Source: an uncultured Holophagales bacterium
GTDB taxonomy: Bacteria > Acidobacteriota > Thermoanaerobaculia > Multivoradales > UBA5704
Direction: 5' to 3'
Assembly (NCBI GenBank): GCA_963842525.1
Contig: CAWJGT010000009.1
Span: 928,001 to 992,000, forward strand
Length of the DNA: 64,000 nt
Part shown: positions 24,149 through 64,000 of the stretch, one piece after another
How positions within the stretch are numbered: the first letter of the stretch is position 1
How the letters are laid out: the number at the start of each line of letters is the position of its first letter
The notes under the pieces: model-generated
What the model was told of the DNA's origin: nothing
Database searches by the model: none
What the model saw: only the letters and a program-made list of their open reading frames with translations
Made by a program: the position numbers and the translations under genes

Positions 24149-25378
24149 TCAGCGCTTCGTCGCCCGCACCCCCAGGTTCCAGATGGGCTTGCCGTGATCG
24201 CGCTGCAGGTCGCCGGGGTGCAGCGGATCCCACATGTCGAACGACCAGGTGCCCGCGTTGAAGACGGTCGCGTCGAAGCCGACGGCGCCAAAGTCGCGGG
24301 CCAGCTCTTCGGCGCTCCACATGTTCTGATGGGCGTGGAGCGGATTGTCGCGCAGGCGGTCCTCGGGTGTGAAGAGCGTCGAGCGCATCGAACGGAACGA
24401 GAGGCGGCCCGCGGCGTAATCACGGATGACACGGCCGGCATCCGTCTGCACCACGACGACTGCTCCGCCCGGACGCAGCTTGCGATGGAGGTCGCGGAGG
24501 AACTGCACGTACTTCGTGGCGGGAATGTGCTCCAGCGTGTGGCTCAGGAAGAACTCCTCGACCTCGCCGTCGCCGGCATGCACCTGGTCGAGGTCGGTGA
24601 TGTCGCAGCGGCGGTCGGCGCCCGGCACCAGGTTGACGGTGATGTAGCCGTCGCGCGGCCAGACGCCGCCCAGGTCGTACTTCGCGGGGCCATGGCCATT
24701 GCTCGGCGGCGGAGCCTCCGGCGGGCGCTCCTGGCTTGCCGGCTGGGGATTGTGCGTCCACCCGTTGGGGCTCGTGGCGCCGTTCCACCAGTGCTTCGCG
24801 TAGGCATCCGGCGTGGGCTCGTGCAGCCGGTGCGTCTCCCACCAGGGGATCGGGTAGAAGAACGCCTCCGGGTGGACGCGGATGTCGCCGCGGTCGCGCG
24901 CCAGCTCGGTGAGCAGCGCCGGACCGGTGACCTCGTTCGGCCGCGCATTGACGTCGTCCGGGTCGAGCGCACGGATGCGGTCCAGCGCCGCGCGCACCAT
25001 CATCCCGGCCAATGGATGGCCCGGCACGCAGCCGACGAGGGACGGGCACAGGAAGGCCTCGCTCTCGCGGCCGCAGAAGGCGGCGTCGCCCAGCAGCTCG
25101 TCGAACGGACGGAGGCACTCCAGGTCGGAATCGACATAGACGCCGCCGTGGAGGCGCAGCACCTCGAAGCGGGCCACGTCGCTCTTCACGACCACGGAGT
25201 AGCGCGGGTCGGCGAGCAGCTCCTGCACCTCGCCGGACGCGCCGTCGCCGAGGTCGGTGCGCCAGAAGCGGAAGGTCCAATCGGGGTGGTGCTGCATCCA
25301 GCTCTGGCGGAAGCGGTGCAGCTCCGGCCGGAACGCGTCCTCGCCGGGCCAGACGTGATGGATTGTCTTCGGAATCAT
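24149..25378 (-). CDS. GT32-like (DxD) glycosyltransferase fused to a SAM methyltransferase-like domain
   Basis: MIPKTIHHVW, SDVARFEVL..HGGVYVDSD and TGPALLT; then DLGG...SHTLEHI...LRPGG; ATGA overlap with the upstream gene. Confidence 0.85.
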   Translation of the reverse strand: MIPKTIHHVWPGEDAFRPELHRFRQSWMQHHPDWTFRFWRTDLGDGASGEVQELLADPRYSVVVKSDVARFEVLRLHGGVYVDSDLECLRPFDELLGDAAFCGRESEAFLCPSLVGCVPGHPLAGMMVRAALDRIRALDPDDVNARPNEVTGPALLTELARDRGDIRVHPEAFFYPIPWWETHRLHEPTPDAYAKHWWNGATSPNGWTHNPQPASQERPPEAPPPSNGHGPAKYDLGGVWPRDGYITVNLVPGADRRCDITDLDQVHAGDGEVEEFFLSHTLEHIPATKYVQFLRDLHRKLRPGGAVVVVQTDAGRVIRDYAAGRLSFRSMRSTLFTPEDRLRDNPLHAHQNMWSAEELARDFGAVGFDATVFNAGTWSFDMWDPLHPGDLQRDHGKPIWNLGVRATKR

Positions 25379-26553
25379 CGGGGTCTCTGGAGGTCGGTGC
25401 CCAACCTCCCCTCCTGCCAGACGATCTTTCTCGCCGGCGTGTAAAAGTTCATGGACGGCATCATGCGGATGTAGAAGTCGTCGATCGGCCGGTCCAGCGA
25501 GTCGACCTCGTCCAGCATGCGGTCGATCGCCGGCAGGCGCAGGAACGACATGGTGGTGCCCCAGGTGCCCACGAGGCGCGCGTGGTTGGGACCGAGGACA
25601 CGTGGCGGGGTGCAGTGCTCGCCGCCGGGCAGGTGCAGCACGTCCCAGTCCTCGGGCACCTCGTCGAGGAAGGCCGCGAACGCATCCAGGAAATCGTCGG
25701 CGAGCACGAGGTCGTCCTCGACGATCGCGCAGGGCGCCCGGCGCGCCTGCGCCTGTTTGAGCAGGGCGGCGTGGGAGAGGTAGCAGCCGACGGCGCCCGG
25801 CCGCACCCAGTCCGGGCGGATGCTCCGGAGCTGGAGGCGCTGCCCGTCGAAGGCCTGGAAGCGGCGCGCGCCGGTGATGCCGATGCGCGCCAGTTGCTCC
25901 CGCGCGTGCTGCAGACGGTCCGGGCGCCGGTCGAGGTTGACGATCCACCACTCGTAGCGGTCGAGCAGGGCGCGCAGGGACAGCCGCGGGCCGCGGTACA
26001 GGATGCGCTTGGTGCCATAGCGGAAGACGGCGCGCAGACCGTCCCGGGCTTCCGGCGGCGCCAGCAGGTTGAGCGGACGCCAGTCGCCGTCGTCGATGTC
26101 GGCGTTGTCGACGCGCTCGTCGTCGCAGTTGACGAGGAGCACGTGCTTGAAGGAGGCGAGCGCCGGTTGGGCGAGAAACGCGCGCACGCTCTCCAGGCTC
26201 CAGTGCTGGAGCACGTCCTTGACCAGGAGGAGGTCGAAGCCGGTATACGCGCCGAGCTGCCGGGCGTCGCCTTCGACGTACTCCACGCCCGGGAAGCGCG
26301 CGCGGTTCCTCTCGACGACGGCCGGCACGATGTCGAGCCCGACGTAGCGCGCCCCCTTCCAGTCGATCGCGTGCGGATAGCCCACCAGGCCGCAGCCGGC
26401 GTCGAGCACGCTGCGGATCTCGTGCTCGACGAGGAGCTGCTCGACGAAGGAGCGGTACGGCCGGCTCGCCTCCAGCGTGGAGCCCGGCTGCCGCTCGTCC
26501 CAGACGCCATCTTCGTACAGGCTGCAGAAGACCTGGGCGTGATCCCCGAGCAT
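25375..26553 (-). CDS. Class I SAM methyltransferase fused to a GT25 glycosyltransferase
   Basis: VLDAGCG, YVGLDIV and KDVLQHW; then VNLDRRPDRL, GAVGCYLSH and IVEDD. Confidence 0.85.
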   Translation of the reverse strand: MLGDHAQVFCSLYEDGVWDERQPGSTLEASRPYRSFVEQLLVEHEIRSVLDAGCGLVGYPHAIDWKGARYVGLDIVPAVVERNRARFPGVEYVEGDARQLGAYTGFDLLLVKDVLQHWSLESVRAFLAQPALASFKHVLLVNCDDERVDNADIDDGDWRPLNLLAPPEARDGLRAVFRYGTKRILYRGPRLSLRALLDRYEWWIVNLDRRPDRLQHAREQLARIGITGARRFQAFDGQRLQLRSIRPDWVRPGAVGCYLSHAALLKQAQARRAPCAIVEDDLVLADDFLDAFAAFLDEVPEDWDVLHLPGGEHCTPPRVLGPNHARLVGTWGTTMSFLRLPAIDRMLDEVDSLDRPIDDFYIRMMPSMNFYTPARKIVWQEGRLGTDLQRPR

Positions 26554-26559
26554 GGCGCC

Positions 26560-29500
26560 TCAGACCCTCAGACCCCGCAGCTCGCTGCGGGCGGTGGGGT
26601 TGCGCGGGTCGAGGCGCAGCGCGGTCTCGAGCTGCCCCCGCGCCTGGTCGCGGCTGCCCAGGCGGCGGTAGAGCTTGCCGAGCTGGGCGTGCACCCAGGG
26701 GCGGTTGCCGTCCTGGGGATGGAGCAGGCGGTCGGCTTCGAGCATGGCCGCCAGCGCCTCGTCGTGGCGGCCGAGGCCTTCGAGGGTCTGCCCCTTGTCG
26801 TACCAGGCCCAGGGGTCGAGCGGATCGGCCGCCAGGGCGCGCTCGTAGCGCTCCAGCGCCTCGCGGTAGCGGCGGGCGAGCCGCAGGGCATCGCCGAGGC
26901 GCTTCTGCCGGCCGGCGTCGCCTTCCAGCTCGCGCCGGATGCCAGTGTAGAACTCCAGGTCCGCCGCCATGAAGGATGGCGGATCGATGACCTTCCAGGA
27001 GGATGCCTCGATGTGCTGGCCGCAGAGGAACGCCCAGGCATTCTCTTCGTGGCGGATGTAGACGAAGACGCTGTCATTGAGGACCTTGCGGATGCGCGCC
27101 CGGCCCGAGAGGCGGCGCAGGAACGCCGCGTCCTCGGCGAGGTTGATCTCGGGGAAGCGGGCTTGGCGCTGCCAGACGTCCCGCTTGTAGCCGATCGAGC
27201 CGCCATGGACGTCGGCGTAGAACATGCGGGCGTGCAGGCTGGCGGTGCACGACCAGAACCTGCCGTCGAGGACGTTGAGGATCCAGCCGGTGTCGAGGCC
27301 GCAGACCTCGGCCTCGTTGCGCAGCAGGGGCTGGATCTGGTGGCTCAGCCGCCGCGGGCCGTGCCAGTCGTCGTCGTCGAAGTGGACGATGATCTCGCCG
27401 CGGCTCGCTTCGACCGCCCGGTTGCGCTTCTCGCCGATCGTGACCTTGCGCTCCAGGCGGATGTAGCGGATGCGTTCGTCGTCGGGAATGAGGTCGGCCA
27501 CCGGATCGGTGCCGTCGTCGACGATGACCAGCTCCTTGTGCGGATGGTCCTGGCGGAGGAAGTAGCGGATCGCCTGCGGCATGTAGAGCCGCCGGTTGTA
27601 GGTCGGCATGATGCAGGAGACGAGCGGCACCTCGCGGTCGACGATGATCTGGATTTCTCCCCCTCTCCCGGGGGGTGGGAGTTCGGATGGGAGAGGGGGT
27701 CGGGGGGTGAGGGCCTCACGGTAGAAGAGGGCGTCCTCGTCGCCGGTCACTCGTTCCAGGGGCTGCGGATAGTTGGGGAGGCGGCGCAGGCGTGCCTCCA
27801 CGTCCATGCCGTTCTCGCGCCGCCAGGTGTTGCCGCGGTGGCGCACGACCATGAAGGCCTCGGGCTTCTTGAGCAGCGGCAGCAGCCGGGGCTTCGCATC
27901 GGCGAGGAAGAAGTAGTCCTCGGCCGCGGCCACGTCGCGGAAGCGCGTCGCCTCCCACAGGCTACGGAAATAGCAGAAGGTGGCGCCGGCCACGCCGCGG
28001 CTGCGGCAGACCTTGAGCCGGCCGTCCGGCAGGCGCACCAGGTAGTCGCCGAGCCCGGCGAGCCCCCGCGGGTCGTCAGCGGCGCAGAGCGCCGCGGTCA
28101 CGGCCGAGAGGTAGTCGCGCCGGTACCAGTCGTCGTCGTCCCAGTGCGCGATGATCTCGCCGCGGCTCGCCTCGATCGCCCGGTTGCGCTTCTCGCCCAG
28201 GGAGAGGGGGCCGTCGCAGCGGAGGTAGCGCACCCGCGGATCGGCCGGCAGGAGATGATCTACTTTCTGCCTCGCCGTCGTCGATCATCAGCAGCTCGCG
28301 GTGTGGATAGTCCTGGCGCAGGAAGTACTCGATCGCCTGACGCACGAACGCGGGCCGGTCGCGGGTCGGCATGATGCACGACACCAGCGGCACGCGTCCG
28401 GCTCCCCGTCTCTGGATGGAAGGGCCGGAGCGATGCCGTAGGAGGCGAGGTCCGTGCCGAGGACGCCGTGCAGAAGGTCGGCCGGCCGCGGCTGCCAGCG
28501 CGGGTCGGAGGTGTGCTTGGTGCTGGTGTTGCCGCCATGGATCAGGCCGACGTAGAAGTGGTTGTCCGGCAGGGCAAGGATACGCGGGCCATGGCCGGCC
28601 CACAGGAAGCGGGTGTCCTCGCCCACGTCCACAGCCGGGAAGCGGTTGCGCCGCCAGACCTCGCGGCGGTAGCAGAAGGTGCCGCCCGCCACCCACGCCC
28701 GACCGCGGGTGGGGTAGACGTACTCCCAGGACTTGCCGGAGGAGGGCTCGAAGTAGAGCAGCCGGTCGAGGCCGCAGAGGTCCGCCTTGCCGGCGAGCAG
28801 GGCCTCAACCTGGACGGTCAGACGGCGCGCGGACATCCAGTCGTCGTCGTCCCAGTGGACGAGGATGTCGCCCTGGGCGGCCTCACAGCCGCGATTGCGC
28901 TTGGCGCCCAGCGGCATCCGCCCGTCCATGCGCACATAGCGGATCGACGGCAGGTCCGGCAGCAGGTCGCGCACCGGCTCGGCGCCGTCGTCGCCATCGT
29001 CAATCACCACCAGCTCCTTGGCCGGCCAGTCCTGGCGCAGGAACCAGCGCACGGCATGGGGGAGGTAGGCGCGCCGCGCGGCGCTGGTCGGCATGAGGCA
29101 GGAGACGAGCGGGTGCTCGGTGGTGGTGAGAGGCATGGAGGCGGATGCCTCGTGCCCGTGCCCAGGCCCGTGCCCAGGGTTTACACCCTGGGCTACCGAA
29201 TGTCGCCCTCCGGGCTCTGGAGAGCCTGGGTTTCCAGAGCCCGGAGGGCGGAACTGGGTAGCCCCGGGTGTAAACCCGGGGCGAGCGGGCGTGGTCCGGT
29301 CAGCCTGCGGCCGGATCTGCACCAGCCCCTTCGGCGCGAAATTCTCGCAGGCATCCCCCCGGCAGTGGTCTCGGAACGGTCCTCCGCCTGCGAGCTGCCG
29401 GCCGCAGAGGCGGCGCTGGTAGAGATGGCGGTTGGCGGCGTGGAGGCCATCCTCCTGGCGGATCCGCCAGGCGGGGAGCGGCCGGCGGTGGACGTAGGCT

Positions 29501-30071
29501 CCTCGCGCCCAGACGGCGGGAAAGCCGGCTCGAGCGGATCGGGCGGCCAGGTCCATCTCCCAGCAGGGGCCGGCGCCGTAGGCCTCGTCGGCGCCGCCCG
29601 TGGCGTCGGCCGCGGCGCGGGTGATGGCGAGGCAGAAGTCGCACGGGTCGTGGAGCGGCTGCAGGCGTTCCCAGGTGCCAGCCGCTTCGCGGGCGAGCTG
29701 TTCGGCGAAGCTAAGGACCTCCTGGCGGCTCGCGCCCGGGGCAGGCGCGCTCGCGGCGCGCTGGCGGTTCCAGGCGAGGTTGGCCGACGGACCGGCGAGG
29801 CCATGGGACGGGTCTGCCTCCAGGGCGGCGAGGAGCGCCTCCAGCCAGCCCGGCGCCGGGAGCGTCCCGCTCTCCAGAAAGACGGCCACCGGCGCGTCGC
29901 CCTGCGTGAGCAGGCCGAGGAGATGGTTGAACGTCGCTGCCGGCGGCCCTTCCGGCAGGAGCACGGGTCGGCGGGTGTGCCGGCGAGCCACTCCAGGGTC
30001 TCGGCCAGACCGCGCTCGTCGCGCTCGCCGCGGGGGCCGCGGCGGATGAAGACGCCGATCAGGGCCTTCAC
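26560..30071 (-). CDS. Multi-domain glycosyltransferase: degenerate GT2 + three tandem GT2 domains + TPR (reconstructed over frameshifts near 29965, 28400 and 28262)
   Basis: Three repeats of PLVSC(L/I)MPT..FLRQDxPxxEL...DDG...LGxKRN...H(W/F)DDDDW; C-terminal TPRs; GTGA overlap with the TPR gene. Confidence 0.8.
27657..27712. repeat. Single family A arm, in-frame in the GT2 inter-domain linker
   Basis: CCCCTCTCCC...GGGAGAGGGGGTCGGGGGGTGAGG, translated LTPRPPLPSELPPPGRGG. Confidence 0.75.
29172..29290. repeat. Family B REP doublet, in-frame in the GT2 linker
   Basis: Copy of 16891-17009 in the same orientation and frame (PGxTPGATQFRPPGS...SPEPGGRHSVAQGVNPG). Confidence 0.85.
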
Positions 30072-31114
30072 GCCTGGGGCTCCTCCGCGGCGCGGGCGCG
30101 CAGGTACTGGCCGGCGCGCACGGCGTACTTGCCTTCGGCCGACGCCAGCTCGGTGAGCAGCGGGACGGCTTCGTCGCCGCGGCCGGTCTGGTCCAGGGCC
30201 AGCGCGCGGTAGAAGCGACCGCGTGGCGTCTCGTCTGTCTCTTCGGCCAGCGCTTCGAGCCGGGCCAGGGCCTCGGTGGCGCGGCCCTGGGAGAGCGCGA
30301 TCACCGCCAGATCGGTGTGGGCCTCGACGCTCGTGGGATCGATGATCATTATCCGCTCCAGCTCCTGGGCCGCTTCGCCGACGAGCCCGCGGGCCATCAG
30401 CGTCGTGGCCAGTTGATGACGGGCGTCCAGGTCCTCGGGTGCCAGTGCCAGGGCGCGGCGCAGGGCGTCGGTGGCCGAGCCCAGGTCGTGGCGGGCGAAG
30501 AGGACGGTGCCGAGCTGCGCCCAGCCGCGAGAGGAGGCAGGATCGAGGTCCACGGCGCGGCGCAGGACCGCGACGGCCTCCTCCGTCCGGTTCTGCACGG
30601 CGATGGAGGTGCCGAGCGAGACGTAGAGGTCGGCATCGGTTGGGGCCAGCTCCAGGGCGCCGCGCCAGGCGGCCTCGGCCGCCGCGGGCTGGCCGGCCAC
30701 GAGCTGGAGGCGGCCGAGGTTGCTCCAGGCCAGGAGGTTTTCCGGATCGCTCGTGACCGCGTGCGCCAGGGCTTCGAGGCCGGCTTCCAGGTCTCCCTGG
30801 GCGAAGCGGGCCGCGCCGAGGTTGGCCAGCGCCATGCTGCGCTCGGGGTCGATCTCCAGGGCCCGCTCGTAGTGGTGGATCGCCTCGTCGAGCTGCCCTT
30901 CCTGGGCGAAGGTGAAGCCGAGGTTGTTCCAGGCCGTGGCATTGCCGGGGTCGAGCGCCAGGGCCGCGCGGTATTCGTGGCGGGCGCCGTCCACGTCGCC
31001 CTCCACGTGGAGCAGCGCGCCGCGGCTCAGGCAGGCGCGGACCGCATCGCCGCCGTCCGCGTCCGGGCCGCCGCCGTTGCGCTTGGGGATGGGGAAGTGC
31101 TTGGGGTCGTCCAT
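30068..31114 (-). CDS. All-TPR protein
   Basis: Start MDDPKHF; repeated ALxLDP...AWNNLG TPR units. Confidence 0.88.
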   Translation of the reverse strand: MDDPKHFPIPKRNGGGPDADGGDAVRACLSRGALLHVEGDVDGARHEYRAALALDPGNATAWNNLGFTFAQEGQLDEAIHHYERALEIDPERSMALANLGAARFAQGDLEAGLEALAHAVTSDPENLLAWSNLGRLQLVAGQPAAAEAAWRGALELAPTDADLYVSLGTSIAVQNRTEEAVAVLRRAVDLDPASSRGWAQLGTVLFARHDLGSATDALRRALALAPEDLDARHQLATTLMARGLVGEAAQELERIMIIDPTSVEAHTDLAVIALSQGRATEALARLEALAEETDETPRGRFYRALALDQTGRGDEAVPLLTELASAEGKYAVRAGQYLRARAAEEPQA

Positions 31115-31134
31115 GGTGCTTGCTTCTCCTGAGG

Positions 31135-34100
31135 TCAGAGGATCCGTTTGACCAGCCCCGAGAGCATGTCGAGCGGGTCGATGTCCGGGACCTCGAACTG
31201 GACGTCGGACAGCGAGACGTCGAAAGGCTGGCCCTCCCGGTAGTGGATCGGGAAGGTGATGCCGAAGCGGAGGCCGGAGCCGTACTGGAACGAGGCGAGG
31301 TTCTTGCGCTTGTTGACCAGGGTGACCGTCTTGATCAAGAGGTCCGCTTTGACCTTGAGGTAGGCGGTGATGTCGAACGTGAATTTGGGCTCGGCGTAGA
31401 CCTTCGCTTCGGCATCGAGCGACAGCCCCTTGGCCGGGCTCCACTCGACCGTCACTTCGGCCTGTGCGGCGCCCTCGACGCCGAGCGCGGCGCCCACCTC
31501 CAGCCCGGCTTCGGCGCTGACGACCGGGATGCCGGCGCCGACGCCGCCCTTGATGAAGAGGCGCAGGCCGGCGGAGGCCGGGACGTGGAACAGGGCGCGG
31601 CCGGTGACCTTGGTCTCCTCCTCGTGCGACGGGTTGTAGGTGATCTCCAGGCTGAGGTCGCGGAGCTGGCCCGGCCCGATGCCGGCCTTGGCGTCGAGGC
31701 CGCCGCCGACGGTGGCGAAGATGCCGATGCGCTTGCCGAGCACGGACACGCCCACCAGCGGGATGTCGATCCCGATCTCGAAGATCCTCTTGTTGACCTT
31801 TTTCTCGGGGAAGACGTCGAGGGCCGAGGGCAGAGCGATCTTGCCCGAGACCTCGATCTCGCCGTTGGGGAGCAGCTTGATGCCGGCGGTGCCCTGCAAC
31901 CAGGGTGCGATCTTGATCGTGGCGATGCCCGAGCCGAACGGCGTGATCGTCTCGGTTGGCGGGCCGGAGGGCTGGCCGTCGTCGCCCACGGCGCGGTTGG
32001 TGGCGCCCAGGGTGATGTTCCCCTTGAGCATCCCCTTCTCGAACGGCACCGTGCCGTGGACGGTGAAGGCGCCGTCGTCGTAGTCGACGTCGATGTTGGC
32101 GGTGAGGCCGTGGAAGCCGATGATGGCGTTGCCGTGGGCCTTGACCACGTAGTCGGTGCCACCTTCGCGGGGCTTCATCGAGGCCTCGACCGAGCCGCCC
32201 TTGACCAGCGGGATGTCGGAGGCGAGCTGGAGGTTGCCCATGGCCTCGATGCCGACGGCCGGGTTGTACTTGACCTCCAGCGAGGCCTTCTCGATACCCC
32301 GCATGTCGGGCTCGACCGCGCCCTTGGCCTCCCAGAGGTCGCCGTCGATCAGCACCTCGACGGTGGCCGACTTGACGCCCTTGAGCTTGCCGGACTTGAC
32401 GCCCAGCTTGCCCTTGCCGCCGAATTTCTCGTCGCGGTACCAGACCTCGAATTCGGCGGGCGAGAAGAGGTCGCTCTCGAGCTCGAGCTTGCCTTTGAGG
32501 CCGAAGCCCTTGGAGGTGGAGCCGAGGCCGTGCAGGCTGCCGTGGCCGAGCTTCTCGACGTCGAAGAAGACGTCGCCGAGGACCTCGAAGCCCCGGGTGC
32601 CGGCATTGACGGTGAGGCTCGCGTCGGTCACCTTGATCGGGCCGGGGAAGGAGTAGTCGCCGATGTCGAACGTCTTGCTCAGGTAGACGTCGTCGCCTTC
32701 GATGACGATGTCGATCTCGACGTTCTTGGAGAACAGGGGGATGCTGGGCCTGAGCTTGCCGCGGGCGATGATCCCCTTTTCAGGATCGAGCTCGGCGTTG
32801 TCGATGGTGATAGGGCTCAGCCCCTTGGCCTTGAGCACCTTGCTCACGGCGCGGGTGACGGCGGATTGGGGCACGAAGCCGCCCCAGTCCACGGCGTCGG
32901 ACTCCTGGATGGGGAAGCTCAGGGCCACCTGCTCGATGATCTTGTTGTCCTTGAACGCCGTGCCGCTGAGCGAGCCGCCCTTGCTCTTGCTGTAGTCGAC
33001 CTGGTTGATCCGGAAGTTCTTGCCGAATGGGAGGCTCACCTTCTTCGACGTGACCTTCTTGCCCCAGTCGATGAAGCGCACGCCGCCGCCGGTCTCGCTG
33101 GTGTAGATGGCCAGCTTGTCCGGGTCTCCCTCCAGGCCCGCGGCCTCGATCTGCTTCTTGGTCAGGGCGCTCAGGACGTCGATCTGCTCGCCGGCCTGGA
33201 TCTGGGGGAGCGTCCACGTCTCGGGTGTGCCCTTGGGGGCCAGCCCGCCGACCACGCTTTCGACCTTGATGGTGTAGGAGCGGCGGACCGCCTCCGCCGT
33301 GGGGGGCTTCCTGGTCCACACCGGGCCCGTGGCGGCGTCGATGAGCTTCTGGATGCGGGCGTTGCGCTCCACCCGGATCTGCCGGCCGGACTCCTGGTTG
33401 GGGCCGGACTCCAGCAGCCACATGTTGCCGATCTCATGGGGGCCGCCGAGCTGCAGCTCGAGCTGGTGATCGACGTCATGGAACTTCCGCTGGCCGTCCT
33501 TGCCCCAGAACGGCCGCAGGGCGCGCTGGCGGATGGCCTCCTTGTCGCCGATGACGTAGTTCTTGTCTCCCTTGAGCTTGAGGAAATGGATGGGCTGACC
33601 CTGCTGGGTCGCGCGCGGTGACTTCTCCTTGGTCAGCTTGGTCTTCAGCTTCGATTCGAGCCCCGGGCCCTCCTTGGCCACCTTCTCCCAGACGGCCCGC
33701 TGGTCGTCCGGCCGCTTGTCGTCGGTCTTCTGGGGCAGGTCGAAGGGCGTCTTGGTGAACTTCTTCTTGAAGGTGGGGACCTTCATCTCGGGAATGGACG
33801 CCTTCTGGGTGCGGCGGTTGATGGTCCCCTCGGGGCCGATGTACTCGTCGGGGTCGGTCGACTTGTTCTTGCTCTTCCCCTTCGCCCGCTGCACCACCTG
33901 GCGCTGCACGGCGCCGCTCTGCTGCACCACGTGGGTGGCCTCGTGGGCCATCAGGCCGAGGTCGTTCTGCGACTCGCCGCTGGCAAGCCAGATGTCCTGG
34001 CCGTGGGTGAAGGCGCGGGCATTCAGGTCTTCGGCGGATTTCTGGGCGGAGCTGTCGGAGTGCACCCGCACGCCGCTGAGGTCGCTGCCCAGGCGGTCCT

Positions 34101-52389: not shown

Positions 52390-52392
52390 CGC

Positions 52393-53982: not shown

Positions 53983-53994
53983 GTTTCCTCGTCC

Positions 53995-54711
53995 CTACCA
54001 GATATTTCCAGCGCCGGGCGTATAGCTGGCGCTGACCACGGAATTGGTGATCACGGTGTCGGCCTGCACCACGCCGCTGAACTTGGACATGCCGGCATTG
54101 ACCGTCACCATGCCGGCCGAGATCTCGACCGTGCTTGCGGTGACCGTGACCTTGGCCGACGTGGTGACCGACACCCCCTCGGGCGCGGCCTTGATCTGGT
54201 TGCCGTTGCTGTCGCGCACCTCGACCGAGCGCGCGCCGTCGTCGAGCAGCACGGTGTGGCCGCCGGGGGTCTCCAGCTTCAGGACCTCGCGGCCGTCGCT
54301 GTCGTCGAGCGTGATCTTGACGCCGTTGCGCGAGCGCAGCAGCTTGACCGGGTTCCTGCCAGCGCCGTCCATGCTCTGCGGCGGGGCGTCGACGCCGTTC
54401 CACAGGCTGCCGACCACATAGGGCCGCCGAGGGTCGCCCGCCTCGAAGGCGAGCAAGACTTCATCGCCCACGTCGGGCACGAACCAGCTCCCGCGGTTGT
54501 TGCCCGCCATCAGGGTGGCGAGCCGCGCCCAGGCCTCGTACGCCTGGCCGTCGCCGTCCGGCGACCACGGGAGCTTGACCTTGACGCGGCCCTGCCCCTG
54601 CGGGTCCGAGATGTCCGAGACCACGGCGGCGTAGACCCCATAGAAGAGCCCGCCGAAGCCGCGGCTCACCCGCGCATCGAGCAGCTCGTCCAGGGCTTCA
54701 GCTACGGGCAT
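53995..54711 (-). CDS. Spike protein, gp5/gpV OB-fold (VgrG C-terminal part)
   Basis: DPQGQGRVKV, WARLA, FVPDVGDEVLLAFEAGDPRRPYVVGSLW. Confidence 0.9.
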   Translation of the reverse strand: MPVAEALDELLDARVSRGFGGLFYGVYAAVVSDISDPQGQGRVKVKLPWSPDGDGQAYEAWARLATLMAGNNRGSWFVPDVGDEVLLAFEAGDPRRPYVVGSLWNGVDAPPQSMDGAGRNPVKLLRSRNGVKITLDDSDGREVLKLETPGGHTVLLDDGARSVEVRDSNGNQIKAAPEGVSVTTSAKVTVTASTVEISAGMVTVNAGMSKFSGVVQADTVITNSVVSASYTPGAGNIW

Positions 54712-54713
54712 GC

Positions 54714-55799: not shown

Positions 55800-55811
55800 G
55801 CTCTCGTTCTC

Positions 55812-55998: not shown

Positions 55999-56016
55999 GC
56001 AGTCAGGTCCTTCCGC

Positions 56017-56741
56017 TTAGCGCCTGCCGCCGCCGGGGCTCAGCAGGCCCGGGAGGACGGCGCGGGTTGTCCACGTTGTTGGCTTCGGCGAGGGGGCGCC
56101 AGTTCTCGGCTTGGCCCTGGCGGCCGGCCACGCCCTGCACGGTCTCGCCCTGCCGCACCGGCTCCTGCGGCGTGCGGCCCGGAGCGCCCTGGCCACCCGC
56201 CCCGCCGGCGCCTGCACCGCTTCCGGGGGCGCCTGGCAGGTCGCGGATCTCTCGCTGAATGTCCTGGCTGAGCAGGCTGACCGAGACCTTGGAGCGCAGC
56301 GGCCGGCCTTCTTCGGAGAAGAGCTTCCAGGCTCTCGTTGAGCGACTCCATGATCCCGTCGAACAGGAAGCTCCCCCAGGCGAAGCGCACCCCCGGCGGC
56401 ACCGGGTTCTTCTGCTTGGGGTCCTTCTTCGGCGTGATGAAGTAGGAGACCTCGCGGGTGAGCAGGCGCACGTCGTTGGGTGCCCCCGGCGCGCGGTCGT
56501 CCGGATCGACCGTGACGTCGAACCAGAGGTCGAGCGTCAGCTTGGTGGTGCTCTTGGAGACGAACTGCACGGCCGCCTTCTTGCCCTGGTCGCCGCCGCC
56601 GAGCTGGTTGCTGTAGGCCACCTTCAGGCTGTCGGGGTTGAACTGCACGCGCACCTTCTTCTCCAGCTCGACCACCTGCTGGTTGTTGTCCCACTTGATC
56701 TCCTGCAGCTCGGCCTTGGCGATGGTCTGCGGCTCGGGCAC
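56017..56741 (-). CDS. Tube initiator (Afp7-like) with a C-terminal LysM-like domain; several frameshifts
   Basis: VQFNP, PPGVRFAWG..LFDG; in shifted frames GRPLRSKVSVSL and VRQGETVQGVA...WRPLAEANNVDNPR. Confidence 0.75.
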
Positions 56742-56765
56742 GGTCGATCTCTCCCCCTTTAGGGC

Positions 56766-57233
56766 CTAGGCCCCGGGCGGCACAAGCTGCAGCCGCTCGT
56801 AGGCGATGTTCATCTCTTCGATGGCGATCTGGCCGTCCTTGGCGTTCAGCGCCGGCATCCTCAATTTGGTCGGCAGGCAGCCGGTCAGGGTGAAGGTCAG
56901 CGCCCGCTCGCGCACCCGGTCCTGCGGCAGCAGCACCACCTGGCCGAAGGCGCGGATGCCGCGCGTGTCGCGGCGCAGCACGCGGTCGAACCACGCCCAG
57001 AGGTCGAGCGTGCGGGTGACGCCGCGCTTCAGAACGAGCTGGCCATAGGCCGTGGGGCCCAGCAGGTGGATGGGCCGCGAGTTGTTGCCCCCTTCGCGGA
57101 TGGTCTGCGGCGTCATGGTCACTTCCAGGCCGTCGCACTCGGAGAACTCGGCGTTGCAGAAGATCTGGCCGCCGGGGACCTGGAGCTCCACCAGGAAGTT
57201 GAAGGTGGAGAAGGGGCGCTCGATCTCGGCCAC
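56766..57233 (-). CDS. Tail tube protein (T4 gp19-like, Afp5 type)
   Basis: FNFLVE, FSECDGL, REGG, LVLKRG, IAIEEM.IAYE. Confidence 0.92.
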   Translation of the reverse strand: MAEIERPFSTFNFLVELQVPGGQIFCNAEFSECDGLEVTMTPQTIREGGNNSRPIHLLGPTAYGQLVLKRGVTRTLDLWAWFDRVLRRDTRGIRAFGQVVLLPQDRVRERALTFTLTGCLPTKLRMPALNAKDGQIAIEEMNIAYERLQLVPPGA

Positions 57234-57235
57234 GC

Positions 57236-60071
57236 TCAGGCCTCCTCCAGGAACGGCGGCTCCTGGCCTGCCTGGACCAGGCGCACGGTGAGGAAGGCCA
57301 GCGGGCGCGACGGCGCCACCCGCAGCTCGACGACGAAGCGGCCCAACTCGGCGGTGCCCGGCGGGTTGACCGAGGAGTCGATCACCACGCGGTAGGCCTC
57401 GGCGGGCGTGGCGCCGGTGAAGGCGCCGCGGATGTAGAGCCCGGCCAGCACCTGGTCGAACCGCCGCCAGACGCGGCGCCGGAAGGTGTCGTCGTGCGGC
57501 TCGAAGACGTAGGTGGTCCCCTCGCGCAGCGCCAGCCGGCGGAGCAACGACAGCAACCGGCGGACGTTGACCGGCCGCACCTCCGCGTCATTCGCTGAGC
57601 GTGTCCGCCGAAAGGGCTAGAAAACCGCGCGGGTCGGAGCGCAGCAGGTTGACGCGGACGTTCAGGAGGCGCGCCCAGGAACGGGTGCTGAACGGCGGGT
57701 CCAGGGCCACCACGTCGCGCAGCGGTACGTTGGCCGGCGCGATCCAGGCGCCGCGCGATCGCGCCAGGGCTGCATAGGTGCCGCCGACCGCACCTTCCGG
57801 AGGAGCCCAGAGGGCCTCGCCGCCTGCCGCCACCCCCACCCCCCCAACACCCCGCCGGGCGATCCACGGGTGATAGAGGGCGCCATAGCCGAGCACCGGC
57901 CGCTCGCCGTCGGTGAAGAGCGGCACGCCGCCGGGAGCGAGCAGCGGCACGCCGGCCACAGCCTCGGGCGCGGCGCCGGGGGTCAGATGCGTCAGGTGGT
58001 CCAGCGCCTCCTCCTCGCGGAACGAGCGGGGGAGCGCGAGGAGCGCCAGCAGGTCGCCGCGCGCGCAGCAGAAGCGCAGCAGCGCCCGTTGCACCGCGGC
58101 CAGGACGGTGGCGTCACCGTCGCCCTCGCTGGAGGTCGTCATCCGCCAGGCCGTGGGCGGGGGCGCCGAGCGTCGCAGGGTGATCGACCATGGGCCGCTT
58201 TCGCCATCCCGCACGGCGCGCACGCGGTAGAGGAGCGTCCGTGCCGGGGGGCCGGAGAACCGGTGGGATGTGCCGGAGGCGATGCGGGTCGGGCGGGCGT
58301 CGGCGAAGGACGGATCGGCCGACTCTTCGACGACATAAGCGGTCGCACCAGGAACGCCGGCCCAGAGGAGGACGTCGCCCTCGGGCGGCGAGCCGTACGG
58401 CTCCAGGTGCGGCTCCGGCGTTGCCAGCGGCTCCTCGTCGCAACGGACGAAGGGCTCGGCGGGCAGCACGGCGCGGACGGTGTTGGACCACGGCCCGGCC
58501 TCGCTGCCGCGGTCGGCCCGCACGCGGAACCAGCGCGCCGCGGGACAGGCGACGGGCGGGGGCACATCGAGGAGAAGGCCGGCGATCCCATCCCAGCTCC
58601 GCACGGCGCGGCCAAGGCCGGCATCGTCCCCCTCCTCGACCCGGAAGGTCACGTCCGCCGGTCCCGTCCAGGTCCAGGTCAGGTCCACGCCTTCATCGGA
58701 TTCCGGCGCGGCAACGAGCACCGGCGCCGGCAGCTCGGGCGTGATCTCGGGCGTCTCGCGCTCCCAGCCGGCATGGACGGCATCGGGCACTGCCAGCAGG
58801 CTGACCTCTTCCAGGGGAAGGAGCGCGTGGAGCCCGCCGAGGTCTTCGCCGACCACATACAGCCGGTGGTTGGCCTCGGCGAGGAGCGAGCCGGCGCCGA
58901 GCTGGGCGAGCCGCCGGTCCAGGAAGAGAAGGGCGCCGAAATTCGCCAGGCCGTCGCGCTCCAGTGCCGTGTCCGGCGAAGCGTCCGTGGACGGGCCGCG
59001 GGCCGCGTCCGCCGCAGGGGCCGACGGCATGGCGACGGGCAGATAGAGAGGCGCCGGGTCGTCCGGGCCGGCGAAGGGGAAGCGGGGCGTTGCGGCATCC
59101 CTGGCCAGCGGCCCGCTGGCGGGCACGCCATGGGGCGGCGCCGCCAGGAGCCCGGCGTCGGTAGGCAGGCCACCCCAGAAGCGCGGGTGGGCGGCGGCGA
59201 AGCCGAGCCGGCTGAGCCGGGCGCGCAGCCCGTCACCTTCCCAGGCCAGCAGCTCGAAGGTGAGCCGGCGCACCGACGGCACCCCCGCGAGCGGCGGGCT
59301 GGCCAGGCGGATCGCCTCCCACAGCGCCAGACCGTCGGTCTCGGAGATCGGGATCAGCCGCCGCAGGCCGGGCTCAAGGGCCGACGGCGGCGAGCCCTGT
59401 AGCTCCGGCAGCGCCCAGAACCCCTGGCTGGAGGTCAGCAGCAGGCCGCGCCGCCGGGGCTCCGGCTGCGTCACGGCCTCGACCGGCAGGAAGAGGACCG
59501 GGCCCTGATCGTTGATGGGGTCGAAGTCGAGCTCCAGGAGGTCGCCCGGAGCGGCGCCACCGGGCGGCAGGGAGAGGTACAGGCGGTAGTCGTTGGGAGC
59601 GGCGGAGAACGGCTCGCCCTGGGAGGGATCGAGCGGCAGCCCCTCGCGGTCGAGCACGGCGCCGGCGCGCAGGCGGTCGGCCCAGCTCCCCTCGGCGCGG
59701 GCGCGTGTTTCGGCCGGCTCCCAGGAGTCGGCCCGCACCAGGCCGGGCACCGGAAAGCGCTGGGTGCTCGCTCCGGCGCCGGCTACCCGCACCACCCAGC
59801 AGCGCCGGCCGCCGTTGCGGAAGAAGTCCTCGACCGCGGCGCCCAGGTGAGCGGTCTGCAGCCGTCCGGTTTCGGCGTCCCAGGCGAGCGGCGCGTCGCC
59901 GCCGAACAGGTCGCGAAAGCGCGCCGCGTCCTCCACCGCCACCGGCATCCCCACGGGGCCGGCGGCGGCGAAGCCCACGAACGCCGCCACGTCCATGCGC
60001 GGCAGGGCACGCTCCGCGGCCGGTGGCTCGGCCCGGAACCGGACTCCTGGCAGCTCCGCTTCGAGGATCAC
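57236..60071 (-). CDS. Sheath protein 2 with two inserted FN3-like domains; frameshift near 57590
   Basis: RMDVAAFVGFA..GP, FF.NGG.RCWVVRV, YGALYHPW, APAN, VNVRRL, VFEP. Confidence 0.85.
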
Positions 60072-60084
60072 CGCGGCCTCCGCC

Positions 60085-60544
60085 TCACGTGGTCTCCAGC
60101 ACGATCCGCTCGGAGGCCAGGACGAGCTCCTCGATGGCCACGTCCGTGCCCTTGCCGTTGAGCGCCGGGCCGGTGTACTTCATGGGCCGCGCGTTCTTGA
60201 GCTTCCCACTTGACCGCGGTCTCCGACCGGTCCTGGGTGAGCAGCTCGATCGTCACGTCCTTGAGGGCGTCCTGGGCGCCGTTGCGCACCTCCTCCAGCC
60301 ACTGGTAGAGGTTGGTCGCGCCGATGACGCCGCGCTTGAGCGTGATGTCCGGGGTCTTGTACGTGCCGGTGATCTTCATCGGCGCGTTGTCCTTGAAGTT
60401 GCCGGCGCGGTATTCGGCCACGGTGATCTCCATGCCGAGGCCGCTGATCTCCTGGAAGCCGGCCTTGACGTCCGTGGCGTCAAGGCCTTCCCAGCTCACC
60501 AGGAAGTTGAACTGGCTGTAGGGGCGGTCACGTTCGATGGCCAT
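60085..60544 (-). CDS. Tail tube protein (gp19-like, Afp1 type); frameshift near 60207
   Basis: FQEISGL, EYRAG, ITLKRG; the shifted frame continues WKLKNARPMKYTGPALNG...VAIEELVL. Confidence 0.88.
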
Positions 60545-60561
60545 CGTCTAGCCTCCTCGGG

Positions 60562-62490
<1,929 letters not shown>

Positions 62491-62512
62491 TGCGGTCTTC
62501 CTCCTGATCGGG

Positions 62513-63421
62513 TTACGGGGGCGAGCCCGCTGCTTCGACGAGCAGCTCGGGCCGGCCGGAGGTGCGCAGCACCAGCTCGCGGCCGTAGGCCAGCTCGGCC
62601 TCCAGCTCCGGGATGGTGGGGCCGGCATCCGGCCACAGCCGTGCCGGCTCCTGGTGCCGGATGGCGCGCAGGTCGGGCACGCCCCAGGCGACGGGTTGAG
62701 TGGGAAGCCCGGGTGACCAGCGCACCCGGGCGGTGAGGTGCCAGCGCTGCCCCGCCAGCGGCGGGAACGTGCCGTTGGGCGGCGACGTGGCGATCGTGCC
62801 GGTGACGGTAGGCCAGGGGAGGAGCACGGTCACGCTGCCGCGGCGGTCGGCCAGGCCATACCAGCGGTCGCCCCCCTCCAGCTCCAGCTCCAGCAGCGCA
62901 TGCGCCGCCGGCGCCGGTGCACCATCCGGCCCGCTGCTGTCCGCGTCGGCGAGCTGGGCCCGCACCACGGCCAAGCCGGGGCCTGCCGGCCGGTTGGGGG
63001 ACGAGAACAGATAGCAGCGCGCCGATGCCGCGGACAGCGGGCTCGCATCGAGCCCGGGATTCCACGGGCCGCGGTAGGGGAGCGGCAGGTCCACCGCGAA
63101 CGCCACGGGCAGGAAGCGGCGCCGCGCGTCCTCGACGCTCACCAGGAAGCGCACCGAGAGCGGCTCCGGCGGGCTCGCCAGCAGCTCGGTATCATCGTCA
63201 GAGCGCTCCAGGGCGCGCAGGCCCGGCAGGCCGTGAAAGGCCCACAGCCCGCCGGCGGTGCGCACGGCCGTGCGCTCGGGCCCCACGCCGTCGGCGCGCC
63301 GCGCCCGCACCAGCAGGCTGTCGCGCACCTGCTCGTCGAGAGCGGGGTCCCAGAAGCGGATGCCCAGGAGCGTCCGTACGGTGAGCTCCTCCAGGACACG
63401 GACGTCGACCAGAGGCTCCAT
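62513..63421 (-). CDS. Conserved hypothetical eCIS protein (beta-sandwich-like)
   Basis: Clean ORF between the cap and sheath genes with tight spacing. Confidence 0.65.
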   Translation of the reverse strand: MEPLVDVRVLEELTVRTLLGIRFWDPALDEQVRDSLLVRARRADGVGPERTAVRTAGGLWAFHGLPGLRALERSDDDTELLASPPEPLSVRFLVSVEDARRRFLPVAFAVDLPLPYRGPWNPGLDASPLSAASARCYLFSSPNRPAGPGLAVVRAQLADADSSGPDGAPAPAAHALLELELEGGDRWYGLADRRGSVTVLLPWPTVTGTIATSPPNGTFPPLAGQRWHLTARVRWSPGLPTQPVAWGVPDLRAIRHQEPARLWPDAGPTIPELEAELAYGRELVLRTSGRPELLVEAAGSPP

Positions 63422-63422
63422 C

Positions 63423-64000
63423 TCAGGCCCTCTCAACAACGCCGTGGCGGAAGCGCCGTTCCTGGACCAGCGGCCGGTCGGCCGGCCCTGCGCCGGCCTC
63501 GCCCGTTGCCGTCTCGGTCTCCACCTGCTCCAGCCACACCGCCCGCGCCTGGTAGGGGACCGACAGGTGGTATTCGTTCTGCGCCAGGTTCTCCCACAGC
63601 CGCAGGAGGTCCTCGGTGGACAGCTCGGTGGGGGAGAGCTCCACCGTCTCCTCGGGCCGGAAGACGTCCGCGGTCACCCGGTTGAGCAGGCCGGCGGGCA
63701 GCACCGGGTGGTCCTCCAGGACGCGCATGGCCCAGCCGGCCACGCGGTGCTGGAGAGAGGCCTCGCGGCCCCAGAACGACAGCAGGAAGTGCAGATCAAG
63801 GGGGAGCTGGTGAGGCGCCTGCACCCCGCCCGGCCCCAGGCGGCCGGCCGGCAGGCGGTGGGTGCCATTGATGTAGACCCGGTAGAGGAAGAGCGACACC
63901 CCGGCGTTCAGCGGCTCTTCCTTGAGCTGCCGGGCGGTGAGCACCCGGAACTGCAGCTCGTGATCGTCGAGCTCCGCCGCAGCGGATTCGGAGCGCAGCA
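63423..64000 (-). CDS. DUF4255 / Pvc16-like cap protein (5'-truncated by the window edge)
   Basis: VSLFLYRV, LPLDLHFLL, LED.PVL, LSVPYQARAV. Confidence 0.88.
   Translation of the reverse strand, partial: LRSESAAAELDDHELQFRVLTARQLKEEPLNAGVSLFLYRVYINGTHRLPAGRLGPGGVQAPHQLPLDLHFLLSFWGREASLQHRVAGWAMRVLEDHPVLPAGLLNRVTADVFRPEETVELSPTELSTEDLLRLWENLAQNEYHLSVPYQARAVWLEQVETETATGEAGAGPADRPLVQERRFRHGVVERA

Follow-up and report, generated by a model that had tools for sequence, protein, structure and literature searches.

Organization of the CIS operon

The stretch of DNA analysed here (the window; 64,000 nucleotides from an uncultured Holophagales bacterium) contains a complete operon for a lineage-II contractile injection system (CIS), a phage-tail-like machine, and this operon continues into a cassette of glycosyltransferase (GT) and methyltransferase (MTase) genes, with every gene of operon and cassette on the minus strand. 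The operon starts in the cap gene, ~25–360 nt past the window end, where ORF starts were read and two ORFs scanned. Sheath, tube, hub, spike, gp25, baseplate J, cap and an Afp15-like ATPase are all encoded at this single locus, and Pfam detects no capsid, portal or terminase gene among the 41 window ORFs scanned. Pfam matches comprise Pvc16_N, two sheaths, two gp19 tubes, CIS_tube, GPD and a spike OB domain, then gp25, baseplate J, Tail_P2_I, AAA and eCIS_core (DUF4157), followed by TPR, GT2, MTase plus GT25 and GT32 plus MTase.

The Afp16-like cap or tail terminator (63423..64000; Pvc16_N, E 5e-27) runs on past the window into C9:992025+. It is followed by a 302-aa protein in the cap-adaptor position (62513..63421), which alignment, a structural model and a fold search resolve into two Ig/transthyretin-like sandwiches (transthyretin-like folds score as high as Z 9.4; Alg16B was not among the matches listed). 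This protein carries Ser-Pro-Pro (SPP) motifs at 63175, 62785 and the C-terminus (62524), as well as SPL near residue 127, and all four SPP/SPL sites sit in loops modelled at pLDDT<50, though a Pro-rich loop of any kind would be expected to score this low. Next come sheath 1 (60562..62490; Pfam), tube 1 (60068..60544; Phage_T4_gp19), a long sheath 2 with large insertions (57236..60071; PHROG 23 tail sheath, Phage_sheath_1C; SPP at 59393, 59300 and 58391), tube 2 (56766..57233; Phage_T4_gp19), an Afp7-like CIS_tube protein (56003..56741; PF19266) and a split Afp8 (53995..55799) consisting of hub (54714-55799; Phage_GPD) and spike (53995-54711; Phage_base_V). A conserved subtype gene without any Pfam match (52393..53982; a cluster of 7 loci) encodes a hydrophobic C-terminal helix (hydropathy 3.35), and we infer an Afp6/plug-like role for its product. 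The baseplate and fibre region comprises gp25 (51988-52389; Pfam), baseplate J (49725-about 51970; Pfam), an Afp12-like wedge (46834-49722; Pfam; SPP at 48969), a tail-fibre-like protein (44516..46837; PHROG tail fibre matches; SPP at 46486, 46186 and 46165) and a CIS13-like protein (42908-44482; NF053767 below cut-off). Beyond these lie an Ig-like ORF (41946-42890; weak FixG_C), a signal-peptide-like protein with a C-terminal OMP beta-barrel (39615..41915; OMP_b-brl, E 5e-6) for which no homologue turned up in the related loci and which stays unclustered, a further conserved subtype gene (37421-39610), the Afp15-like AAA ATPase (35286-about 37410) and a 1384-aa DUF4157 (eCIS_core) protein without SPP (31135..35289; PF13699), which is the probable cargo.

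Like the lineage II CIS of dbeCIS (PMC6899500), the locus combines the core genes with a split Afp8, a single Afp11 and divergent Afp12/13-like genes, and neither a PAAR gene (afp10) nor a tape measure was seen in either; these are the gene features of subtype IIb, a likeness of gene content, with trees covering the ATPase only and no reference loci. Among solved sheaths, sheath 1 is closest to those of the lineage relatives 9EZM, 8BKY and 8BL4, the latter two being Streptomyces sheaths of systems working inside the cell. The 9EZM sheath of Halogeometricum belongs to a membrane-bound system that works inside the cell (PMC11566945), and because the nearest solved sheaths thus come from systems acting intracellularly, release of the particle is uncertain. 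The window departs from these systems in its GT/MTase cassette and in having outer proteins rich in SPP. The main text of PMC6899500 nowhere uses the word 'glycosyl', which the AlgoCIS and archaeal papers use in other contexts only.

A cassette of soluble glycosyltransferases and methyltransferases

Four genes follow the CIS operon, in the order TPR, GT-A/GT2x3-TPR, MTase-GT25 and GT32-MTase. They encode a stand-alone TPR protein (30068..31114; Pfam), a multi-GT protein (26560..30071) that begins with a GT-A domain, continues with three GT2 repeats from the subfamily termed here the anchor GT2 and ends in a TPR, a SAM methyltransferase joined to GT25 (25375..26553; Pfam, PHROG 2835 and 3382) and, as the last gene of the operon, a GT32 (DXD) joined to a methyltransferase (24149..25378; Pfam). 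The original prediction of one continuous strand with ATGA/GTGA overlaps or gaps of ≤20 nt was borne out when the junctions were mapped: ATGA overlaps join ATPase to DUF4157 (35289-35286) and MTase-GT25 to GT32-MTase (25378-25375), a GTGA overlap joins TPR to multi-GT (30071-30068), and the remaining spacings are 20 nt (DUF4157 to TPR) and 6 nt (multi-GT to MTase-GT25). The predicted count of about six GT domains likewise holds (the N-terminal GT-A, three GT2 repeats, GT25 and GT32), as do the two MTase domains (Pfam). The multi-GT gene has the content originally described, though not in a single open frame, being broken near 29985, 28400 and 28260. Tube 1 (near its end), the long sheath (in two frames), CIS_tube, baseplate J and the ATPase are also broken, among several structural genes. 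Since the assembly likewise has rpoB and secA split over frames (rpoC is whole), the breaks are most likely assembly indels.

The window GT2 matches PF00535, and the anchor subfamily has an invariant D-D-D-D-W signature. Its model (pLDDT 84) resembles SpsA/TarS-type folds (GT-A); the top fold matches are viral GT2s (TM 0.84-0.85), with PDB entries reaching only TM 0.73 and ≤23% identity. No NCBIfam equivalog reaches its cut-off for the anchor GT2, and no close solved or named member of the subfamily was found. The N-terminal GT-A domain alone has no Pfam or NCBIfam match; it shares 43% identity with the N-terminal domain of a homologue (G003) that matches GT2-like families. As originally noted, flippase, polymerase and nucleotide-sugar families are without a match among the 41 ORFs scanned. 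The cassette ORFs contain no hydrophobic 19-residue stretch above 1.3 and no membrane helix, and the operon encodes neither an ABC exporter nor a membrane-bound initiating transferase, so it does not conform to a Wzx/Wzy or ABC polysaccharide locus. No MptE-like/Maf domain matches in the window.

Linkage of the anchor GT2 to CIS across phyla

The anchor GT2 subfamily (2,227 clusters at E<1e-30) is tied to CIS in many phyla, while its partner GTs and MTases are swappable. It adjoins CIS genes in 57/80 loci, and relatives carrying it have it on a CIS contig in 5/6 cases, the sixth contig being only 1.5 kb. Among 400 sampled genomes of the phylum, 29 were positive for the cap gene; all nine strong GT2 matches (9/9) fall within these 29, and 0/371 cap-negative genomes has one. 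The linkage is far above chance, and the original prediction, which named unlinked homologues as its refutation, survives this check. Records from cultured Myxococcus, Corallococcus, Pyxidicoccus and Bradyrhizobium also carry the anchor GT. For PF00535 overall, PMC8213781 gives an odds ratio of 0.28, a depletion in eCIS; this whole-family score masks the anchor subfamily.

The predicted co-occurrence of the whole gene set holds for GT2; the window's GT25, GT32 and second MTase have no BLAST homologue at the other loci compared (E<1e-8), with GT25-MTase and GT32-MTase fusions recurring at Pfam level (L089, L077 and G172). Methyl 'capping' of the glycan was an analogy: no MTase was seen in the cassettes of G187, G401 and G010. 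Three SPP-rich subtype A/B loci without the anchor GT2 carry an unrelated second cassette, with weak MptE-like/Maf matches (E 0.006-0.008, below cut-off); an orthologue of the stand-alone TPR protein precedes it in G182 (49% identity, E 4e-103). A further type, 'Nterm', contains a GT2 and Methyltransf_24 pair. The same pair, a likeness of domain content, occurs in the proteins of eCIStem accessory cluster 633 (~730 aa; Geller et al. 2021, PMC8213781). The supplementary tables of that study place the cluster at eCIS loci from Pedobacter, Algoriphagus and Arcticibacter and include similar-sized GT2 genes of Caulobacter, Nocardioides and Phenylobacterium, while its main text is silent on the cluster.

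Ser-Pro-Pro enrichment in structural proteins

Outer structural proteins of cassette-bearing loci have an excess of SPP. The motif was first noticed by eye in the window, and later counts include sets without it. In 19 cassette-bearing loci these proteins hold 155 SPP (43.0 expected), and in 33 cassette-free loci 56 (53.2 expected); with the window excluded, SPP ranks top of 4,949 tripeptides. The window CIS genes contain 9 SPP in 9,966 aa, whereas the genome's four CIS loci that lack a cassette have 1 in 22,062 aa. In each of the 13 cassette loci with more than 0.7 SPP per 1000 aa, the motif is spread over 3–7 unrelated protein families, and it is encoded by 54 different codon triplets using both TCN and AGY serines. 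Tubes, gp25 and CIS_tube have no or nearly no SPP. At aligned positions, Ser in G187 and G401 faces Thr in four cassette-free homologues, and several SPP sites are short loop insertions; one aligned cap site is Thr in G172 despite its cassette.

The association has exceptions. SPP is low despite a cassette in G005 (a single GT2 domain) and G424, and 'Nterm' cassettes show 10 SPP in 22,652 aa (0.44 per 1000, versus 0.30 without a cassette). It is raised without a linked cassette in G583 (1.18; its GT lies elsewhere in the genome), G021_C83 (1.15), G019_C58 (0.98), G021_C25 (0.72) and G577 (0.66).

Comparison with known glycosylation systems

In mycobacteriophages (Freeman et al. 2023, as described in PMC12363180 and PMC10877033), a particle-encoded GT set modifies the particle's own structural proteins, as we propose for the cassette. 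There capsid and tail tube are modified, whereas the window has no capsid and the motif is missing from its tubes. As a fold match to the anchor GT2, the Che8 GT is only distant (TM 0.58, 19%), and no close homologue turned up in the phage collection. Giant-virus GT2s are among the top fold matches of the anchor GT2. For chlorovirus PBCV-1 (A064R/A061L) and giant-virus glycogene clusters, PMC9614988 describes soluble cytoplasmic GT-GT-MTase proteins making an O-methylated particle glycan; A064R has two GT domains plus an MTase and builds a methyl-capped capsid glycan. These are eukaryotic viruses; the PBCV-1 glycan is N-linked, and many of them bring nucleotide-sugar genes of their own, which the cassette lacks. 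The cassette shares with virion self-glycosylation systems its soluble, particle-encoded and often MTase-fused GTs, and differs in serving a headless CIS operon on a bacterial chromosome rather than a capsid virus; it may work like these systems without being a member.

The flagellin O-glycosyltransferases FlmG and Maf (PMC7591256, PMC3426422) are reported to be soluble and to O-glycosylate a self-assembling surface structure, and they share a TPR domain with the cassette. The window, by comparison, has no flagellin nearby and a C-terminal TPR that is not conserved in its family, and where those systems use a single transferase it has many GTs together with MTases. The TPR-GT2 fusion, invoked originally as a sign of protein O-glycosylation, proved particular to this locus (TPR matches in 0/16 anchor GT proteins scanned), so a conserved substrate-binding TPR fused to the GT is not a trait of the anchor family.

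Proposed function and alternatives

We consider it reasonably probable, on sequence evidence, that the soluble enzymes of the cassette attach an O-linked glycan to SPP serines at the surface of the particle and O-methylate this glycan. The cassette would then serve the injection system as its own glycosylation module in the cytoplasm. One of its GTs (anchor GT2 or N-terminal GT-A) would move sugar from a host nucleotide-sugar to the SPP serine, at sites where the cap-adaptor-like protein, the long sheath, the wedge and the fibre have flexible loops; the remaining GT domains would lengthen the chain by single sugars, with no lipid carrier involved, the MTases would O-methylate it, and the TPR domains may dock the enzymes on one another or on subunits. 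In the second cassette type, the Maf-like domain could be the serine transferase; it counts against the proposal that two unrelated cassette types would need to read one motif. The particle would end up with a glycan coat that varies from strain to strain, and the use of this coat is a guess: shielding from proteases or adsorption, solubility, avoidance of kin cells or target binding.

An alternative that we regard as unlikely is that the cassette remodels a surface glycan of the producer, be it LPS, teichoic acid or capsule, and thereby makes the fibres spare kin, as in phage serotype conversion. The partner families include GT9, GT25, GT4, GT8-like and Capsule_synth, whose best-known roles are in envelope glycans, partners vary by strain as in surface loci, and the 'Nterm' type without SPP could be explained. 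This leaves the SPP in structural proteins unexplained, and the window has no membrane-bound enzyme, flippase or polymerase. Anchor GT proteins have no membrane segments (70/70), and within 7 kb of the 57 CIS-linked loci lie 8 multi-helix genes, 4 of them DUF4157-cluster cargo. The same anchor enzyme also occurs in hosts whose envelopes differ greatly, taxa without LPS included.

It is similarly improbable that the GT linkage is real while SPP merely marks certain CIS clades by descent, for instance as a flexible linker or binding motif, with the acceptor elsewhere. The ATPase tree yields only 3 independent pairs on supported branches and a sign test that is not significant, so common descent may account for part of the SPP signal; nearly all of the subtype A clade is rich in SPP, even G577, which lacks the GT, and subtype C shows the opposite trend. 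Against this, SPP-rich loci are scattered over the tree and have a cassette wherever they occur, a linked cassette is present in every one of the 10 loci (of 52) with the highest SPP density, and TPP, APP and GPP are unchanged between cassette and cassette-free loci. SPP-rich proteins also adjoin the anchor GT2 outside CIS operons: in L067 (9 sites) and L098 (8) a LysM gene and a zincin-like protein, and in G583 (7) and G126 (3) a collar gene and a roughly 950-aa protein.

These neighbours resemble cargo, and the anchor GT2 most often directly follows the DUF4157 gene, as would suit a cassette that glycosylates the DUF4157 protein or other effectors instead of the shell. We give this reading a low probability: DUF4157 proteins are SPP-poor (9 in 39,079 aa; none in the window), and in other layouts the GT follows fibre genes or stands in front of the sheath. 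With SPP in structural proteins and not in DUF4157 proteins, the particle is indicated as acceptor, which narrows the original proposal of a glycan on particle or cargo to the former.

A role of the GT/MTase proteins as toxins for injection, comparable to the GT domain in Afp18 of Yersinia ruckeri, is very unlikely; their genes lie at the operon end, where cargo genes are found, an eCIS GT effector is known (PMC10598620) and two partner proteins weakly match 'GT4-conflict', but multi-GT plus MTase assembly lines fit glycan synthesis rather than modification of a single host target, and no DUF4157 or loading domain is fused in the proteins scanned. Tailoring of the product of the NRPS cluster that begins 350 nt downstream on the same strand is largely refuted and scarcely credible, the cassette being translationally coupled to the CIS operon and separated from the NRPS genes by a repeat element, with homologues elsewhere following CIS and not NRPS genes.

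Implications

Particle self-glycosylation has been described for a few phages and giant viruses, and no report of it for bacterial injection systems was found in the literature searched; the SPP enrichment in outer structural proteins of cassette-bearing CIS is new. Beyond the proposed O-glycosylation at this locus, we suggest tentatively, at somewhat less than an even chance, that a widespread CIS class builds a strain-variable methylated O-glycan coat, using a short transferable SPP sequon that entered exposed loops of up to seven structural proteins in concert, served by at least two unrelated enzyme sets and reused for other secreted assemblies. If right, this reading predicts exact modification sites and adds a variable glycan layer to CIS biology, which could set stability, target range or kin discrimination. 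It would also define a new pathway of protein O-glycosylation in the cytoplasm, directed by a tag of three residues, and soluble, lipid-carrier-free enzymes that may glycosylate such a tag would be a useful glycoengineering tool.

Organisation of the CIS operon and its cassette

The 9.9 Mb assembly that holds the window (34 contigs) carries a complete contractile injection system (CIS) operon on the minus strand, which runs from the right end of the window to position 31135 according to Pfam, PHROG and NCBIfam scans. Its gene content agrees with subtype IIb as described in section 10 of PMC6899500, and the nearest solved sheaths are 9EZM, 8BKY and 8BL4. The operon continues unbroken into genes for a TPR protein (31114-30068), a multi-glycosyltransferase (multi-GT) protein (30071-26560), a methyltransferase (MTase)-GT25 protein (26553-25375) and a GT32-MTase (25378-24149), all on the minus strand; the overlaps and short gaps of the original prediction were seen again on re-reading the junctions. 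A sigma-54-type activator gene lies divergently upstream of the operon, past the window edge. Both the multi-GT gene and a number of structural genes are split by frameshifts. Assembly errors are the likely cause, given that rpoB and secA are likewise split in the same assembly (rpoC is intact).

The operon also encodes a 766-aa signal-peptide-like protein that ends in an OMP beta-barrel (39615-41915, minus), for which the related loci gave no homologue, and a fibre-like protein ending in a helix-hairpin-helix (ComEA-like, DNA-binding) domain (44516-44700, minus); a cargo-like gene of locus L096 likewise has a helix-hairpin-helix domain. Short palindromic repeats (27640-27712, 38600-38680, 23955-24105 and 29165-29300) sit in frame inside coding sequence, namely between GT2 repeats and in gene 37421-39610, and also downstream of the operon; they comprise one family of around 600-650 genomic copies and another of around 48. 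Downstream is an NRPS cluster (12468-23798, minus) and upstream, past the window, are PKS/NRPS genes (995720-1001756 of the same contig), the CIS operon being inserted among biosynthetic clusters. An ECF sigma factor, a zinc-finger anti-sigma factor and two TPR-CHAT (caspase-like) proteins are encoded consecutively at 2221-9898 (minus).

Linkage of the GT2 subfamily to CIS loci

An alignment places the GT2 repeats of the window in a distinct subfamily, here called the anchor GT2 (2,227 clusters at E<1e-30). Close homologues of the cassette are mostly from Acidobacteriota records, which makes this the probable phylum of the host. The subfamily is linked to CIS genes in four partly overlapping samples, the counts of which are not additive. 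Among 40 relatives, six carry the anchor GT2 (E<1e-30) and all six a CIS_tube (Afp7-like) gene; in five the GT2 gene shares its contig with CIS genes, and the contig of the sixth is only 1.5 kb long. A GTDB genome scan identified at least 592 relatives, the best 80 of which span Acidobacteriota, Chloroflexota, Myxococcota, Pseudomonadota, Actinomycetota, Bacteroidota, Gemmatimonadota and others. In these best 80 of at least 592, a CIS marker lies within 10 kb of the anchor GT2 at 57 of the 80 loci and at 49 of the 59 having at least 8 kb upstream (45/80 and 42/59 with structural genes or ATPase as the only markers); inspection recognised one further CIS locus, L075, beyond the marker count.

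Across 400 genomes sampled evenly from the phylum of the window, the anchor GT2 was detected at E<1e-25 in 14, with seven candidates scored per genome, so that some GT2 genes may have been missed. Strong matches (E<1e-45) occur in nine genomes, all among the 29 positive for the cap gene marker Pvc16_N (one of these, G063, is unpublished and GT-negative) and in none of the 371 negative genomes (Fisher p 1.5e-11, overstated as kin are not independent); the five weak matches all lack Pvc16_N. In six of the nine the gene is on the contig of the cap gene, in one it follows ATPase and DUF4157 genes on another contig, and in two it is outside the CIS operon. In 201 genomes of Myxococcota (the phylum of compared genome G433), a strong match to the cap-adaptor-like gene was found in nine, with the GT 33-35 kb downstream in five, elsewhere in one and absent in three, two of whose contigs end early; one further genome has the GT without a CIS gene in the 40 kb examined. 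The predicted co-occurrence of GT2 homologues with CIS elsewhere is borne out by the 57 of the best 80 loci and by all nine strong-match genomes. Within the window's own genome, the cassette accompanies one of five CIS loci; the other four, of various layouts, are all without it (C19:322-345 kb, C3:1826-1850 kb, C3:1852-1878 kb and C30:72-98 kb).

Composition and enzymes of the cassette

The cassette is soluble and modular. Partners of the anchor GT2 vary (GT9, GT4, GT17, GT25, GT32, GT8-like and NPCBM, with MTases of the Methyltransf_24, TylF, FkbM and 11/23/25 families) and frequently form fusion proteins of 700-1,600 aa; BLAST against the other loci gave no close homologue of the window's GT25, GT32 or second MTase. 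TPR-GT2 fusion, which the original prediction called typical of protein O-glycosyltransferases, proved not to be conserved in the anchor GT2 family by Pfam scan. NCBIfam holds no equivalog for any cassette domain, PHROGs gave weak GT matches only, and the phage collection searched gave one weak match. The anchor GT2 domain is predicted to adopt a GT-A fold, its model lying closer to viral GT2s (TM 0.84-0.85, identity up to 31%) than to solved proteins (TM up to 0.73, identity up to 23%). The Afp, PVC and MAC loci are not known to carry such a GT/MTase cassette.

A membrane-like segment was found in none of 70 anchor GT2 proteins.

Enrichment of Ser-Pro-Pro in cassette-bearing loci

Repeated Ser-Pro-Pro (SPP) was first noticed by eye in structural proteins of the window and, having been found after the fact, was tested in other loci. 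Called genes of the window CIS contain nine SPP in 9,966 aa; the genome-wide rate is 0.16 per 1000, and just one SPP occurs in the 22,062 aa of this genome's four CIS loci that lack a cassette. In the 80 GT-anchored loci (best 80 of at least 592), SPP reaches 2-4 per 1000 in DUF6519, cap-fusion and neighbouring baseplate proteins, 0.3 in other genes and 0.23 in DUF4157.

For a comparison independent of the GT, CIS loci were picked via cap or CIS_tube matches and labelled in this analysis as subtypes A, B and C. In subtypes A and B, a restriction made once subtype C was seen not to fit, SPP ranks first of 4,949 tripeptides with the window excluded (97 in 57,473 aa vs 44 in 120,248 aa). Across all subtypes, a rank test on SPP gave p 4.5e-4 (13 vs 32 loci); a tripeptide ranking within subtype C brought up no other motif (highest z 2.7, 1,395 ranked). 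The three highest subtype A/B loci scored GT-negative (in G172, G182 and G037) end in a second, unrelated cassette, represented by L110:1838-6769 (plus), L194:15130-17931 (plus) and L208:3613-6180 (minus). This second cassette opens with a weakly MptE/Maf-like domain, after which come domains resembling GT4, GT2, GT32 or Capsule_synth, and in G182 it is preceded by an orthologue of the TPR gene of the window. The three loci were regrouped as cassette-positive after all called proteins of these loci were screened with the same GT queries. The final count, limited to loci whose structural proteins total 2,000 aa or more (three shorter loci and eight fragments without structural genes were dropped), gives 155 SPP vs 43.0 expected from within-protein shuffles in 19 cassette loci, window included, and 56 vs 53.2 in 33 other loci. 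TPP, APP, GPP and PSP do not differ between the two groups, and SPL, SPA and PPS are mildly higher in cassette loci. The shuffles rule out Pro/Ser content as sole cause, and an origin in DNA repeats is excluded by the use of 54 codon triplets; one SPP in gene 37421-39610, outside the counted segment, does derive from an in-frame repeat element.

The motif clusters in the cap-adaptor-like protein, fibre, long sheath, DUF6519, baseplate J, sheath and cap; tubes, gp25 and CIS_tube have almost none of it. Aligned sites are short loop insertions or have Ser replacing Thr, and in the one cap-adaptor-like protein modelled, four S-P-P/L sites are all predicted in low-confidence loops. This protein is identified by where its gene lies and by its Ig-like fold, as PDB searches gave no sequence match and Alg16B was absent from the fold matches.

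Some results go against the pattern. SPP per 1000 aa is 2.02 in loci of the window type (six, window excluded), 1.12 with the Maf-like cassette (three), 1.09 with anchor-only or other cassettes (five), 0.44 with the type carrying an 'Nterm' domain (four) and 0.30 without a cassette (33), so that the 'Nterm' type misfits. Rates of 0.66-1.18 per 1000 also occur in five loci that have no linked cassette, one of which carries the GT elsewhere in its genome; for some loci the DNA covered does not extend downstream. In an ATPase tree, the loci that are both SPP-rich and cassette-bearing make up one large clade plus several branches within a second. An independent-pairs sign test on this tree (40 rows, two short rows omitted, threshold 0.6 SPP per 1000) was not significant, with only three pairs on supported branches, so that p values computed per locus make the case look stronger than it is.

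Outside CIS operons, the anchor GT2 adjoins SPP-rich proteins in two further settings. One, found in two phyla (L166:16048-19628, plus; L247:4767-8362, minus), joins a protein of approximately 950 aa, which matches no Pfam family and contains 3-7 SPP, to a gene with a tail-collar domain and to the anchor GT2; a PatG-like S8 protease is encoded upstream in G126. The other (L098:2184-12868, plus; L067:9185-19103) comprises a small LysM gene and a zincin-like protein of 1,100 aa that carries 8-9 SPP, next to a GT/MTase mega-protein; no CIS structural gene lies within range. Elsewhere, GAD-like/Tdi1 immunity genes between cargo gene and GT cassette (L050:9374-9964, plus; L154:6676-7218, minus) support the large proteins upstream being toxins.

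Proposed role of the cassette

Remodelling of the producer's envelope is unlikely, as is the reading of SPP as a lineage trait unrelated to glycosylation. Glycosylation of cargo is quite improbable; SPP-rich neighbours outside CIS operons, such as the zincin-like protein, would be compatible with it, and within CIS loci the motif favours structural proteins. It is very improbable that the GTs are themselves toxins, and a role in tailoring the neighbouring NRPS product is barely conceivable; membership of the NRPS cluster was rejected, as the genes are coupled to the CIS operon, a repeat element lies between them and the NRPS genes, and homologues elsewhere follow CIS genes.

No earlier description of a CIS with an accessory glycosylation module was found in the literature searched. 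CIS-part glycosylation is not reported in the available portions of PMC6899500, PMC8894135, PMC11566945, PMC10598620, PMC11297309 and the ixotrophy preprint (10.1101/2024.01.29.577165), and the open literature searched gave no report of CIS glycosylation or of an SPP sequon in bacteria. According to PMC8213781, GT2 is depleted overall in eCIS, and its supplement contains an uncommented GT2+MTase cluster among Bacteroidota loci. Other sources describe the chlorovirus particle-glycan enzyme A064R (PMC9614988), cite glycosylation of mycobacteriophage capsid and tail tube (PMC12363180, PMC10877033) and treat the cytoplasmic flagellin O-glycosyltransferases FlmG and Maf (PMC7591256, PMC3426422).

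The acceptor is probably some protein of the CIS. Somewhat less firmly, we favour a cassette that would O-glycosylate SPP serines of outer CIS subunits in the cytoplasm, with fused GTs lengthening the glycan from host nucleotide-sugars and MTases O-methylating it. In this reading the linkage, solubility, modularity and motif are observed; its chemistry, acceptor and purpose are inferred. Such a cassette would work like viral particle self-glycosylation, although the CIS locus is not a virus, and its product may be a variable glycan coat on the particle.
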